Shown: positions 2,162 through 48,028 of the stretch, piece by piece
How positions within the stretch are numbered: the stretch's first letter is position 1
Layout of the letters: every line of letters starts with the position of its first letter
Assembly (NCBI RefSeq): GCF_055900595.2
Contig: NZ_CM148325.1
Reading direction: 5' to 3' (one strand)
DNA length: 64,000 nt
Made by a program: the position numbers and the translations under genes
Notes under the pieces: generated by a model
Database searches by the model: none
What the model was told of the DNA's origin: nothing
What the model saw: the letters and a program-made list of their open reading frames with translations, nothing else

Positions 2162-3477
2162 CAACCTAACTCCTTCGCCAGACGGGCAAACTCATTGCCT
2201 CGTTGTTCAAAGTTCTTGAATTGATCAAGGCTGGCACAGGCCGGGGAGAGCAGAACCATATCTCCTGGTTGAACACGCGGAGCCAGCAAGCGCATCGCCT
2301 GTTCCATGGTTTCGGTTTGTTCTGCCACTTCCGGGCGCAGTGCCGCCAGCTGTGCGCCGTCACGACCGAAACAATACAAACGTACGTTATCGCCATTCAG
2401 GTAACGTGCCAGCGGACTAAAGTCCGCCGATTTACCATCGCCGCCCAGCAACAAATGCAGCGTGCCATCTACGTGCAGGCCATTCAGCGCCGCTTCCGTA
2501 CTGCCGACATTGGTCGCTTTCGAGTCGTTAATCCAGCGCACACCGTTATGTTCCAGCACCACTTCAAAGCGATGCGGCAAACCAGTGAACGTAGTTAACG
2601 CTTTCAGGCTACTGGCGCGTGGCAAACCAGCTGCGTCTGCCAGCGCCAGTGCCGCCAGCGCATTGGTGTAGTTATGCTGACCGGAAAGTTTCATCTCTTT
2701 CACGTTCAACACTTTCTCGCCTTTCACCCGCAGCCAGGTTTCACCCTGCTGATGATTCAAGTGATAGTCGCCCATATTGATACCAAAGCTAACGCAGCGT
2801 TCATCCGCACCACGAATCGGCATTGTTAAGGCATCATCAGCATTAACCACGCAAACTTTCGCATTTTCATAAATGCGCAGTTTTGCCGCACGATACTGCT
2901 GTAAACCAAATGGATAGCGATCCATATGATCTTCTGTCACGTTCAGAATGGTCGCTGCCACCGCCTGTAAACTGGAGGTGGTTTCAAGCTGGAAGCTCGA
3001 CAGCTCCAGCACGTACAGTTCGCACTCATCATCCAGCAGCATCAACGCAGGCAGGCCAATATTGCCACCCACACCAACGTTAACCCCCGCCGCTTTCGCC
3101 ATTTCACCCACTAGCGTGGTGACCGTGCTTTTGCCGTTAGAACCGGTAATCGCCACAATCGGTGCTTGTGCTTCGCGACAGAACAGCTCGATATCGCCAA
3201 CGATTTCGATTCCGGCATCAGCGGCAGCGCTTAAGGATGGATGCGCCAGTGCAATACCGGGACTGGCGACAATCAGATCGGCCGCCATCAGCCATTCATC
3301 ATTCAGACCGCCCGTGTGGCGTTCTACGGCTTCGGGTAATTTATCCAGGCCAGGCGGTGTCATACGCGTATCCATAACGCGCGGCGTCACACCGCGAGCG
3401 AGGAAAAAGTCCACGCAAGAAAGCCCGGTGAGGCCCAGGCCGATAATGACGACATTTTTACCCTGGTAATCAGCCAT
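2161..3477 (-). CDS. murD: MurD, UDP-N-acetylmuramoylalanine--D-glutamate ligase
   Basis: 438 aa ORF starting [21 protein letters not shown]; Mur ligase P-loop GSNGKST; position between ftsW and mraY. Confidence 0.96.
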
Positions 3478-19696: not shown

Positions 19697-21713
<2,017 letters not shown>

Positions 21714-21744
21714 TTTGTAAACCGTCCGGCACTCAATCGCCAAA

Positions 21745-21973
21745 AAGAAAAAAGCCAGCAGATAATCACTGCTGGCGTGGCGATTAACACCAATACTCAG
21801 TCACACATGATGTCCGCAAATCAGTAGTCAGAATGACTCCCCTCCCACTGCATCAGCTCTTCAAGCATGGTTAATCGTTGTGGGACGCTTAACCAACGCA
21901 ACCAGCACAACGTCGCTGTCGCGGTAAAATAGTGCTGATAAAACTGACGCATGGGGCACCTCCTTGCTTCATC
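21745..21973 (-). ncRNA. sgrS: SgrS small RNA (sugar-phosphate stress)
   Basis: Minus strand reads GATGAAGCAAGGAGGTGCCCCATGCGTCAG... at the 5' end, contains the conserved seed CATGTGTGACTGAGTATTGGTG (plus-strand 21788-21809), and ends in hairpin GCCAGCAG-TGATTATC-TGCTGGC plus U-run. Divergent from sgrR. Confidence 0.88.
21821..21952 (-). CDS. sgrT: SgrT, small protein encoded within SgrS
   Basis: 43-codon ORF MRQFYQHYFTATATLCWLRWLSVPQRLTMLEELMQWEGSHSDY inside the SgrS transcript, with a GGAGG Shine-Dalgarno upstream. Confidence 0.8.
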   Translation of the reverse strand: MRQFYQHYFTATATLCWLRWLSVPQRLTMLEELMQWEGSHSDY

Positions 21974-22040
21974 GTTAGGAATTATTGACTTAATATAGGG
22001 AAAATAAAATTGCTGACTTTTGCGCAGGAGTTCCCCTTTT

Positions 22041-23696
22041 ATGCCATCCGCTCGTCTGCAACAACAGTTCATCCGCCTGTGGCAATGCTGCGAGGGTAAA
22101 TCGCAGGACACAACGCTCAACGAACTAGCGGAGTTATTGAGCTGCTCCCGTCGTCATATGCGCACCCTGCTCAATACCATGCAGGATCGCGGCTGGCTGA
22201 CGTGGGAAGCGGAGGTCGGGCGCGGTAAACGCTCACGTTTAACATTCCTCTATACCGGGCTGGCGCTTCAGCAACAGCGAGCAGAGGACCTGCTGGAGCA
22301 GGATCGTATCGATCAGTTGGTGCAACTGGTTGGCGACAAAGCGGCTGTGCGGCAAATGCTGGTTTCTCATCTGGGGCGTACCTTCCGCCAGGGGCGGCAC
22401 ATCCTGCGCGTTCTCTACTATCGTCCGTTGCGCAATCTGCTGCCCGGCAGTGCATTGCGCCGTTCCGAAACCCATATCGCCCGGCAAATCTTCAGTTCGC
22501 TAACGCGCATAAATGAGGAAAATGGGGAACTGGAAGCAGACATCGCCCACCACTGGCAGCAAATATCACCGCTTCACTGGCGCTTCTTTTTGCGTCCAGG
22601 AGTCCATTTTCATCATGGTCGTGAACTGGAAATGGACGACGTGATCGCCTCTTTAAAACGAATCAATACGCTGCCGCTCTATTCGCATATTGCGGACATT
22701 GTGTCGCCGACGCCCTGGACGCTGGATATCCATCTCACGCAACCGGACCGCTGGTTACCGTTACTGCTGGGGCAAGTTCCGGCGATGATCCTGCCACGAG
22801 AATGGGAAACCCTCAGTAACTTTGCCAGCCATCCCATCGGCACCGGTCCGTATGCGGTGATCCGCAACAGCACCAATCAACTGAAAATTCAGGCATTCGA
22901 TGACTTCTTCGGTTATCGCGCATTAATCGACGAAGTAAATGTCTGGGTTCTGCCAGAAATTGCCGACGAGCCAGCCGGCGGTCTGATGCTAAAAGGGCCG
23001 CAGGGCGAGGAAAAAGAGATTGAAAGTCGGCTGGAGGAAGGTTGCTACTATTTACTGTTCGACAGCCGCACCCATCGTGGGGCGAATCAGCAAGTCAGGG
23101 ACTGGGTAAGTTATGTGCTTTCTCCAACTAATCTGGTCTATTTCGCCGAGGAACAATACCAGCAACTCTGGTTTCCAGCCTACGGGCTGTTGCCGCGCTG
23201 GCATCATGCCCACCCGGCGCAGTGCGAAAAACCTGCCGGGCTGGAAAGCCTCACCCTGACCTTTTATCAGGATCATATTGAGCATCGGGTGATTGCCAGG
23301 ATCATGCAGCAGATTCTGGCAAGTCATCAGGTCACACTTGAAATTAAAGAGATCAGCTACGATCAGTGGCACGAAGGAGAGATCGAGAGCGATATCTGGC
23401 TTAACAGCGCCAACTTTACGCTGCCGCTGGATTTTTCGCTGTTCGCGCACTTGTGCGAGGTGCCGCTGCTCCAACACTGTATTCCGATCGACTGGCAAGC
23501 CGACGCCGCCCGCTGGCGCAATGGCGAAATGAATCTGGCGAACTGGTGCCAGCAACTGGTCGCCAGTAAAGCAATGGTGCCACTTATCCACCACTGGCTG
23601 ATCATTCAGGGGCAACGCAGTATGCGCGGTCTGCGTATGAACACCCTCGGCTGGTTCGATTTTAAATCCGCGTGGTTTGCACCACCGGATCCATGA
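22041..23696 (+). CDS. sgrR: SgrR, transcriptional activator of sgrS
   Basis: ORF-track frame N-extended by 7 codons; ATG at 22041 gives [43 protein letters not shown]..., 551 aa. N-terminal HTH plus solute-binding-protein-like domain. Confidence 0.94.
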
Positions 23697-23724
23697 TTGC
23701 TGGTTGATAACAAAATCACTACAC

Positions 23725-23835
23725 TAACGCCGTTCTCAACGGGGTGCCACGCTGCCGCGTGCGCTGAGAAAATACCCGTCGAACCTGATCCGGATAACGC
23801 CGGCGAAGGGATTTGAGGCTCCTTCTCAAGTCCTT
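23725..23835 (+). ncRNA. TPP (THI-box) riboswitch in the thiBPQ leader
   Basis: Conserved THI-element blocks AACGGGGTGCC ... CTGAGA ... ACCC ... AACCTGATCCGGATAACGCCGGCGAAGGGA directly upstream of thiB. Confidence 0.85.
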
Positions 23836-39494: not shown

Positions 39495-39585
39495 GCGATT
39501 AGGTAGGCCGGATAAGGCGTTCACGCCGCATCCGGCAATTTGTGCCGCCGGATGCGGCGTGAACGCCTTATCCGGCCTACAATTT
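39495..39585. repeat. REP/BIME: inverted pair of REP palindromes
   Basis: GGTAGGCCGGATAAGGCGTTCACGCCGCATCCGGCA ... TGCCGCCGGATGCGGCGTGAACGCCTTATCCGGCCTAC fills the whole gap between the convergent rluA and djlA. Confidence 0.85.
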
Positions 39586-43067: not shown

Positions 43068-46161
<3,094 letters not shown>

Positions 46162-46163
46162 CG

Positions 46164-46541
46164 ATGATCAATTCGCCCCGAGTGTGTATTCAGGTTCAAA
46201 GCGTCTACATTGAGGCACAATCTTCACCTGATAATGAACGTTACGTTTTTGCTTATACCGTAACCATACGCAATCTGGGGCGAGCGCCAGTGCAGTTGTT
46301 GGGGCGTTACTGGCTGATCACCAATGGCAATGGCCGTGAAACCGAAGTCCAGGGCGAAGGAGTGGTTGGCGTTCAGCCACTTATCGCGCCTGGCGAAGAG
46401 TACCAGTACACCAGCGGTGCAATCATTGAAACCCCGCTGGGCACCATGCAGGGTCACTACGAAATGATCGATGAAAATGGCGTCCCCTTCAGCATCGACA
46501 TTCCCGTATTCCGACTCGCCGTTCCCACACTCATTCATTAA
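46164..46541 (+). CDS. apaG: ApaG (DUF525 protein)
   Basis: ORF-track frame N-extended; ATG at 46164 gives [39 protein letters not shown]..., 125 aa. Confidence 0.94.
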
Positions 46542-46547
46542 AAGAAT

Positions 46548-47396
46548 ATGGCGACATACCTTATTGGCGACGTTCATGGTTGTTACGATGAACTGATCGC
46601 ATTGCTGCATAAAGTAGAATTTACCCCTGGGAAAGATACCCTCTGGCTGACAGGCGATCTGGTTGCGCGCGGACCGGGTTCGCTGGATGTTCTGCGCTAT
46701 GTGAAATCCTTAGGCGACAGCGTACGTCTGGTGCTGGGCAATCACGATCTGCATCTGCTGGCGGTATTCGCCGGGATCAGCCGCAATAAACCGAAAGATC
46801 GCCTGACACCGCTGCTGGAAGCGCCGGATGCCGACGAGCTGCTTAACTGGCTGCGTCGCCAGCCTTTGCTGCAAATCGACGAAGAGAAAAAGCTGGTAAT
46901 GGCCCACGCAGGGATCACGCCGCAGTGGGATCTGCAGACCGCCAAAGAGTGCGCACGCGATGTAGAAGCGGTGCTGTCGAGTGACTCCTATCCCTTCTTT
47001 CTCGACGCTATGTACGGCGATATGCCAAATAACTGGTCACCGGAATTGCGGGGGTTGGGAAGACTGCGTTTTATCACCAACGCCTTTACCCGTATGCGTT
47101 TTTGCTTCCCGAACGGTCAACTGGATATGTACAGCAAAGAATCGCCGGAAGAAGCCCCTGCCCCACTGAAACCGTGGTTTGCGATTCCTGGCCCTGTCGC
47201 TGAAGAGTACAGCATCGCCTTTGGTCACTGGGCATCGCTGGAGGGCAAAGGTACGCCGGAAGGTATTTACGCGCTGGATACTGGCTGCTGTTGGGGCGGG
47301 ACATTAACCTGCCTGCGCTGGGAAGATAAACAGTATTTTGTCCAGCCGTCGAACCGGCATAAGGATTTGGGTGAGGGAGAGGCGGTCGCGTCTTAA
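46548..47396 (+). CDS. apaH: ApaH, diadenosine tetraphosphatase (symmetrical)
   Basis: 282 aa [46 protein letters not shown]... (metallophosphatase motifs), ending ...[10 protein letters not shown]. Stop overlaps the ccdB stop on the opposite strand. Confidence 0.95.
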
Positions 47397-47707
47397 ATCC
47401 CGTCGAGCATAAAATCTAATGCTCCTTTAATCAAAGTTCGGTGCGCGCTGGCATCGCAAAATTTCGTTCCCAGCGTGTTAACTGGAACAGTTGCAGTCTC
47501 ATGCGTCATGAGCACATATTCTTTGCCGTCTACCAGTAAAAGGATTGGGTTAAGCCGTTCTGGTGGGCGAATATGGCTAAATCGTTCAATAGGTGTTAAT
47601 GGATTAACGATACGGCGATTAATCTCACCAATAATGTCGCTGGTAACATCGATAACAAAGGGCAACGCGGCGTTCCTGCCGCGACTGCGGTATACCGTAA
47701 ATTGCAT
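47393..47707 (-). CDS. ccdB: CcdB-family toxin (gyrase poison), chromosomal homologue
   Basis: 104 aa [44 protein letters not shown]...ATVPVNTLG...DFMLDGI. Shares the MQF-VY N-terminus, FVDV-SDII block, VPV and terminal GI with F-plasmid CcdB as I recall it. Sits 2 nt downstream of a CcdA-like ORF in antitoxin-toxin order. Confidence 0.85.
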
Positions 47708-47709
47708 CG

Positions 47710-47943
47710 CTAGAAGTTCCGGTACTCATCAGAGAAACATCCGGTTTCATCAGCCAATTGATTTAACGCAGCGATAGCTTCTGCATTCTCTTCACGCCAA
47801 CGTGTTGCTGCATGTTTTTTAAGTTCAGCATTGAGCGCAACCGTAAGGGTGGCGCTCATATTTAAGCCTGCATCACGAGCGCGATTGACTAACTCACGGT
47901 CGACGGTGACGGTCACACTTTGTGTGGTACGTTTTGCAGTCAT
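47710..47943 (-). CDS. ccdA: CcdA-family antitoxin, chromosomal homologue
   Basis: 77 aa ORF MTAKRTTQSVTVTVDRELVNRARDAGLNMSATL...RWREENAEAIAALNQLADETGCFSDEYRNF. Resembles F-plasmid CcdA (TVTVD N-terminal ribbon region; RW-EN ... F-DE-R-F C-terminus). Good Shine-Dalgarno (CAGGAGCACGATATCATG). Confidence 0.85.
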   Translation of the reverse strand: MTAKRTTQSVTVTVDRELVNRARDAGLNMSATLTVALNAELKKHAATRWREENAEAIAALNQLADETGCFSDEYRNF

Positions 47944-48028
47944 GATATCGTGCTCCTGTACAATTTATACGTCTTGTATACACGGATATCTGCACGTATC
48001 AGTGATGCCGGAATTCTGATATACAAAC
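47944..48028 (-). promoter_or_regulatory. Putative ccdAB promoter/operator
   Basis: The 85-bp folA-ccdA spacer contains clustered GTATAC-like elements (TGTACA, TTATACG, TGTATACA, CGTATCA, GATATACA), resembling the short palindromic operator repeats of plasmid ccd operons. Confidence 0.5.

Follow-up and report, generated by a model that had tools for sequence, protein, structure and literature searches.

Why do leuD and sgrS lie 33 nt apart in the window (the whole 64-kb stretch of DNA that was analyzed), when the same interval in Escherichia coli K-12 is 1,254 nt long and holds the 1,179-bp setA gene? An earlier note on this DNA had pointed out the close spacing, had placed setA between sgrS and leuD in K-12, and had named assembly collapse as a possible cause. 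Its statement on K-12 is right, and leuD does not directly adjoin sgrS in that strain. The comparisons below indicate that the window very probably carries a widespread setA-less haplotype of the CFT073 type, which arose by one old deletion in the Escherichia lineage and has the glucose-phosphate stress module intact without the SetA pump.

Structure of the leuD-sgrS junction

The features of the locus are as follows.
21108-21713, plus strand: leuD, last gene of leuABCD (RefSeq annotation of an identical record; NCBIfam TIGR00171, 343 bits)
21714-21746: leuD-sgrS spacer, 33 nt, TTTGTAAACCGTCCGGCACTCAATCGCCAAAAA, the deletion junction (K-12 counterpart 1,254 nt with setA)
21747-21973, minus strand: sgrS, 227 nt, CFT073-type allele (Rfam RF00534, 228 bits, full model)
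21754-21776, minus strand: SgrS intrinsic terminator hairpin (8 bp, 6 of them G-C, then U6-C-U5)
21787-21800, minus strand: SgrS base-pairing core CUGAGUAUUGGUGU, the same as in K-12 and the outgroups
21821-21952, minus strand: sgrT, 43 codons plus stop (RefSeq WP_001248772.1, "glucose uptake inhibitor SgrT")
21842-21859, minus strand: approximate haplotype breakpoint, sgrT codons 32-37 (alignment and distances)
21974-22040: divergent sgrS/sgrR promoter region, nearly the same in both haplotypes by alignment
22041-23696, plus strand: sgrR, intact, 551 aa (NCBIfam equivalog NF010149; RefSeq annotation)

The leuD stop codon is TAG at 21711-21713, and it is 33 nt from the SgrS 3' end and 40 nt from the hairpin stem; the distance of about 30 bp from stop codon to hairpin given in the earlier note was a fair estimate. 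Junction boundaries relative to K-12 were placed by eye on a global MAFFT alignment and then confirmed by local alignments. A K-12-type setA cistron about 27 bp 3' of the sgrS terminator is absent, and the spacer runs directly into the leuD stop codon. No setA remnant was found at the leuD-sgrS junction. A tblastn search with K-12 SetA against the whole 64-kb window gave a single match at chance level (E = 9.1), which bears out the observation that no ORF in the interval resembles an MFS transporter. As a direct consequence of the absence of setA, SgrS is not co-transcribed with an efflux pump here, as the note had proposed. The junction is a discrete structural feature, so no chance model was applied to it. 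Over 21400-22300, identity to the E. coli Z0117EC0005 chromosome (NZ_CP098223.1; dog, South Korea) is 100%.

SgrS matches Rfam RF00534 at 228 bits (gathering score 37) over model positions 1-232. Its base-pairing core is single-stranded, is located 5' of the terminator, and is identical in K-12, Salmonella, and Citrobacter. The hairpin has an 8-bp stem and a U-rich tail, UUUUUUCUUU (also given as TTTTTTCTTT), and this rho-independent terminator conforms to a predicted Hfq-binding module. It is the sole intrinsic terminator between the convergent leuD and sgrS genes. A scan of 21500-22150 found no terminator-like site on the plus strand, so the leuD and sgrS units share only the SgrS hairpin. 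Use of this hairpin as a bidirectional terminator that also serves leuD was considered and is not supported, because the plus strand has no T-run after the hairpin and the scan returned no such site.

In the setA-less haplotype, a 7-nt inverted repeat brackets the terminator and U tract: GGCGAUU (21735-21741, sgrS sense, within the spacer) is complementary to AAUCGCC (21779-21785), and K-12 has no equivalent. The predicted 7-bp outer stem could pair only in a read-through sgrS RNA or in the leu transcript. The sole variant at this stem, in E. albertii, keeps pairing only on plus-strand RNA, and one variant is too little for a covariation argument.

Downstream of sgrR, the window has a TPP riboswitch followed by thiBPQ. 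In strain 147, Sakai, IAI39, and 042, a type III effector gene, espY2, is inserted between sgrR and this riboswitch; the gene is absent at this site in the window (empty site 23697-23729), K-12, O18, and CFT073-type B2 genomes. Elsewhere in the window, an Rfam naRNA4 match (a REP-type palindromic element, 39506-39577, both strands, about 71 bits) lies in the rluA-djlA interval, which in K-12 contains yabP/yabQ and a transposase fragment.

Alleles of sgrS, sgrT, and sgrR

The SgrS/SgrT allele of the window is clearly already known, and it was published in 2009. SgrS of CFT073 and O157:H7 shares 88% identity with K-12 SgrS, the sgrT start codon is lost in O157:H7, and an unusual stem-loop in K-12 sequesters the sgrT ribosome-binding site and limits sgrT translation (Horler and Vanderpool, 2009, PMC2760817). 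The A/B1 strains 55989, SE11, ATCC 8739, E24377A, and HS have K-12-type SgrS (PMC2760817), and the synteny figure of that paper appears to indicate setA where it is present. Three of these points were reproduced here: identity of 88.2%, ATT in place of the sgrT start codon in Sakai and strain 147, and a GGGGG Shine-Dalgarno sequence in K-12 only. Because the allele is the one described by Horler and Vanderpool (2009), we rate the setA-less finding as already known.

The window SgrS differs from the CFT073/O18 sequence by 1 nt (position 62, which causes SgrT K14T; 1/226 to CFT073), from Sakai, strain 147, and 042 by 3 nt each, from IAI39 by 4 nt, and from K-12 by 28/227 nt. The SgrT C-terminus of the CFT073/O157:H7 type, EELMQWEGSHSDY, is the same as that of the window, and in O18, Sakai, IAI39, and 042 setA is likewise absent, with leuD 33 nt from the SgrS 3' end. 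The K14T residue, which sets the window apart from the CFT073 type, is also found in E. whittamii and MOD1-EC7003. CFT073 itself has IS200C in the spacer, directly after the run of six T's in the terminator tail of sgrS, and the window lacks this element; the insertion stretches the sgrS-leuD gap to 744 nt and replaces the remaining U-rich tract. Unlike O157:H7, the window has an intact sgrT start. The corresponding codon in Sakai and strain 147 (window 21950-21952) is ATT rather than ATG, from a G-to-T change at SgrS position 24, and RefSeq annotates sgrT in strain 147 and not in Sakai. In IAI39, the last base of the SgrS core (window 21787) has a T-to-C change that turns GGUGU into GGUGC.

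Relative to the K-12 sgrS-setA operon, the window has in common sgrR, the promoter region, the pairing core, the dual function with sgrT, and an Hfq-type terminator, but it has neither setA nor an mRNA made by read-through. Divergence between the two is about 20% in the 3' 40% of SgrS, a part that takes in the terminator loop and the final seven SgrT residues. The U tract is U6-C-U5 in the window and U8 in K-12, and the Shine-Dalgarno sequence is GGAGG in the window compared with the GGGGG stem-loop of K-12. The K-12 operon was reportedly described by Sun and Vanderpool in 2011.

The window SgrT (43 aa) is identical to K-12 SgrT at 35/42 residues (E = 8e-27). The two differ by K14T and G32E and in the final seven residues (the end reads WEGSHSDY here and WDDRNSES in K-12); the earlier note had suspected a C-terminus unlike that of K-12, and rightly so. 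No NCBIfam model matched the 43-aa protein, and RefSeq names an identical protein SgrT. The consensus Shine-Dalgarno sequence of the window sgrT occurs in all other compared genomes except K-12.

SgrR matches NF010149 at 1123.8 bits (cutoff 476) over residues 1-550. The divergent sgrR/sgrS layout is present, with a promoter region nearly the same as that of K-12 (2.6% difference over 21886-22040), and by analogy with K-12 sgrS would be induced in an SgrR-dependent manner under glucose-phosphate stress. In the K-12 laboratory strain record NZ_CP047127.1, sgrR has an internal stop and is listed as a pseudogene. Two patches within sgrR vary among strains. At 23091-23240, over roughly 150-250 bp, the window is 11-19% from every Escherichia sampled (K-12, O18, 147, IAI39, MOD1-EC7003, E. 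whittamii, E1V33, and E. albertii), and K-12 and O18 are only 2-3% apart; this patch has the appearance of a short segment, imported or hypervariable, within the solute-binding-like C-terminal domain of SgrR. The sgrR 3' end (23280-23580) is dimorphic, with K-12 10-14% from the window, O18, and strain 147, and these three 1-4% from one another. This second dimorphic patch indicates that mosaic structure reaches past the setA indel.

Distribution of setA in E. coli and other genera

A 901-bp query across the junction was searched in 5,426 complete E. coli genomes and matched in 5,399. The contiguous setA-less junction was found in 2,159 genomes (about 40%), and the query was split into two pieces in 3,240 (8,639 places in total, equal to 2,159 + 2 x 3,240). 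K-12 setA DNA was found in 3,241 of the 5,426 genomes at 3,242 places, about one per genome with a maximum of two, and was at least 99% identical in 3,228 of the 3,241. Named setA-less strains include CFT073 and NMEC O18 (B2), 042 (D), IAI39 (F), and the phylogroup E strains O157:H7 Sakai and O157-like strain 147, while setA is present in K-12 and REL606. Phylogroup D was represented by 042 in this strain panel. The setA-less junction is therefore ordinary, being common to about 40% of sequenced E. coli and to other Escherichia species, and the rarity implied by the earlier note did not hold up.

These counts bear on two alternative explanations. An assembly collapse, or a recent private deletion in the source strain alone, has nothing in its favor beyond the contrast with K-12. 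The same junction occurs in all 2,159 independent complete genomes, with the same 33-nt spacer in O18, Sakai, IAI39, and 042 and a 31-nt spacer in E. albertii and E. whittamii, and its flanks belong to a diverged haplotype of their own and are not K-12 sequence with setA taken out. This excludes the collapse that the note had raised, and we regard the explanation as a whole as extremely improbable. It is also very unlikely, if marginally less so, that setA has moved elsewhere in setA-less strains, to the chromosome or a plasmid, so that the pump is kept and unlinked from sgrS. Three of the 3,242 setA places are on plasmids, so setA DNA does occasionally occur off the chromosome, but the genomes with setA (3,241) correspond to those with a split query (3,240) and are complementary to the 2,159 with a contiguous junction. 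A contiguous junction together with setA elsewhere is thus possible in at most one or two genomes, and nothing SetA-like is present within the 64-kb window. Because the two sets are complementary, setA is either at the leuD-sgrS locus or absent from the genome, and the rest of the source genome, judging from these counts, would also lack it.

The source lineage is itself rare: of the 5,426 complete genomes, only 8 reach 99% identity or more to the window in two separate regions (21400-22300 and 44000-48000). Mean identity of the window to K-12, O18, and strain 147 is 95.5-96.3% over about 40 kb (about 1400-40700), and the source strain belongs to a rare, deep-branching E. coli lineage, which may resemble the cryptic clades. 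Many E. coli cover only about 84% of the 44000-48000 query and stop just before a chromosomal ccdA/ccdB toxin-antitoxin pair (about 47393-47943, minus strand) between folA and apaH; this coverage pattern marks another presence/absence polymorphism.

For comparison with other genera, the conserved SgrS core was scanned in one genome per GTDB species, giving 47 loci. Three of the 47 (Veillonella, Phormidium, and a Woesearchaeota archaeon) have none of the three genes and look like chance matches. Directly downstream of sgrS, setA is found in Salmonella (arizonae, diarizonae), many Citrobacter, Klebsiella, Raoultella, Enterobacter, Siccibacter, Superficieibacter, and Pluralibacter, and leuD follows setA in the outgroup loci that reach far enough. 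Salmonella, Citrobacter, and Klebsiella have the flanking genes, SgrS core, and terminator architecture of the window but, unlike it, retain setA (77-94% amino-acid identity to K-12 SetA). Since sgrS-setA-leuD is kept in the outgroup genera, it is the ancestral enterobacterial order, and the setA-less state is the result of deletion.

Within Escherichia, setA is also missing from E. albertii, E. whittamii, Escherichia sp. E1V33, and a representative labelled E. coli SCPM-O-B-8794. The sample contained no genomes under the names E. fergusonii, E. marmotae, or E. ruysiae, and among the Escherichia species scanned only Escherichia sp. MOD1-EC7003 had the K-12-type cassette. The four setA-less lineages and the window have a common junction, in which leuD ends in ATGCGTTAG and the spacer in ACTCAATCGCC, followed by the sgrS A-run and terminator. 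The spacer is 31-33 nt in O18, Sakai, 147, IAI39, 042, E. whittamii, E. albertii, E1V33, and SCPM-O-B-8794. Identical breakpoints across species indicate one old event, or one allele that has since spread, and not repeated losses. In the proposed sequence of events, one deletion in an ancestor within the Escherichia lineage would have removed setA together with flanking intergenic DNA, bringing the SgrS terminator to a distance of 31-33 nt from the stop codon of the convergent leuD gene. The resulting haplotype would be the normal one in phylogroups B2, D, E, and F, the deep-branching lineage of the source strain, E. albertii, E. whittamii, and other Escherichia. Either the deletion occurred once before the species split, or the deletion allele was spread between species by recombination.

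The K-12 cassette and expected physiology

The sequence next to the indel was compared in sliding windows among the window, K-12, O18, and strain 147. Over the 3' part of sgrS (21741-21880), divergence between setA-bearing and setA-less genomes is about 22%, compared with 0-0.7% among the setA-less genomes themselves. On the leuD side, the distance between K-12 and O18 climbs from 0.5% to 10-16% over 21500-21713, about the last 200 bp of the gene. At the sgrS 5' end and promoter, divergence between the two classes is down to 1-2.5%, with 1-3% over the sgrS part 5' of the breakpoint, and the alignment has a sharp breakpoint in sgrT at about codon 37 (window position about 21842). The K-12 cassette thus comprises the last 200 bp or so of leuD, setA, and the 3' 40% of sgrS (SgrT C-terminus and terminator). 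Its distance from the sequence typical of the genus is about 20%, equal to that of other genera. It has sharp breakpoints in sgrT and leuD and is found mainly in the A/B1 crown group.

In the 3' part of sgrS, the K-12 type is 19-22% from every setA-less Escherichia, and either type is 17-27% from Salmonella and Citrobacter, while the setA-less Escherichia species are just 0-6.5% apart. K-12 setA forms a long branch by itself, at a distance of 21-23% from each of the genera sampled, and is therefore not a recent import from any of them. Among the 120 homologues listed for the K-12 SetA protein, all are E. coli entries with at least 99% identity except one E. coli entry at 94%. The cassette is an old, distinct allele that reflects either a long-lived polymorphism or homologous re-introduction into A/B1. 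We lean slightly toward re-introduction because B2, D, E, F, and the other Escherichia species are all setA-less.

In its full form, re-introduction is an alternative account of the locus. The setA-less state would be the resident state of the genus, a K-12-type cassette would have re-entered A/B1 and a few other lineages from a diverged setA-bearing relative, and the lineage of the window would never have lost setA itself. The absence of setA from all four non-coli Escherichia lineages sampled and from E. coli B2, D, E, and F is consistent with this account, as are the near-uniformity of setA among E. coli genomes, the abrupt change in divergence within sgrT, and the long setA branch. However, an ancient polymorphism that was retained accounts for the same data, no donor was found among the sampled genera, MOD1-EC7003 also has the cassette, and the signal in the K-12-type 3' end is mixed, partly Salmonella-like and partly unique. 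We consider this account a serious possibility, at slightly less than an even chance. The approximately 20% haplotype divergence and the sharp sgrT breakpoint suggest, about as tentatively, that the K-12 operon is lineage-restricted. The K-12 sgrS-setA operon may then be the exception in Escherichia, a diverged cassette possibly swapped in by homologous recombination, and here too we stop just short of even confidence.

The stress module of the window is complete: SgrR, the sgrS promoter, the pairing core, and a strong terminator are all present, and sgrT is preceded by a good ribosome-binding site. If the pathway operates as in K-12, SgrR would induce SgrS under glucose-phosphate stress, SgrS, assisted by Hfq, would repress ptsG along with its other targets, and SgrT would inhibit PtsG, while the SetA pump would not be made. 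A large fraction of polymerases reads through the K-12 sgrS terminator (about 50% on a plasmid during normal growth), and the read-through RNA is the setA mRNA, which does not bind Hfq (Morita et al., 2015, PMC4509938; PMC9765468). Read-through at the same point in the window would instead run antisense into leuD. The role of SetA in the stress response has been called "elusive"; setA aids recovery only under certain conditions, and a role in alpha-methylglucoside export is not supported (2014 review, PMC4021124). Loss of SetA probably costs the cell little.

The setA-less window is of little weight in itself, since it carries a standard allele with like annotation in thousands of RefSeq genomes. 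Its importance is in how K-12 results are applied: SgrR-dependent setA induction and regulated terminator read-through are not transferable to about 40% of E. coli, including the reference strains CFT073 (UPEC), NMEC O18, Sakai (O157:H7), and 042 (EAEC), or to other Escherichia species. If the K-12 operon is indeed lineage-restricted, the sRNA/mRNA switch by terminator read-through would be a lineage-specific add-on and not a conserved feature across Escherichia, and the diverged haplotype boundary in sgrT would offer a neat example, on a small scale, of how one allele replaces another at an sRNA locus.
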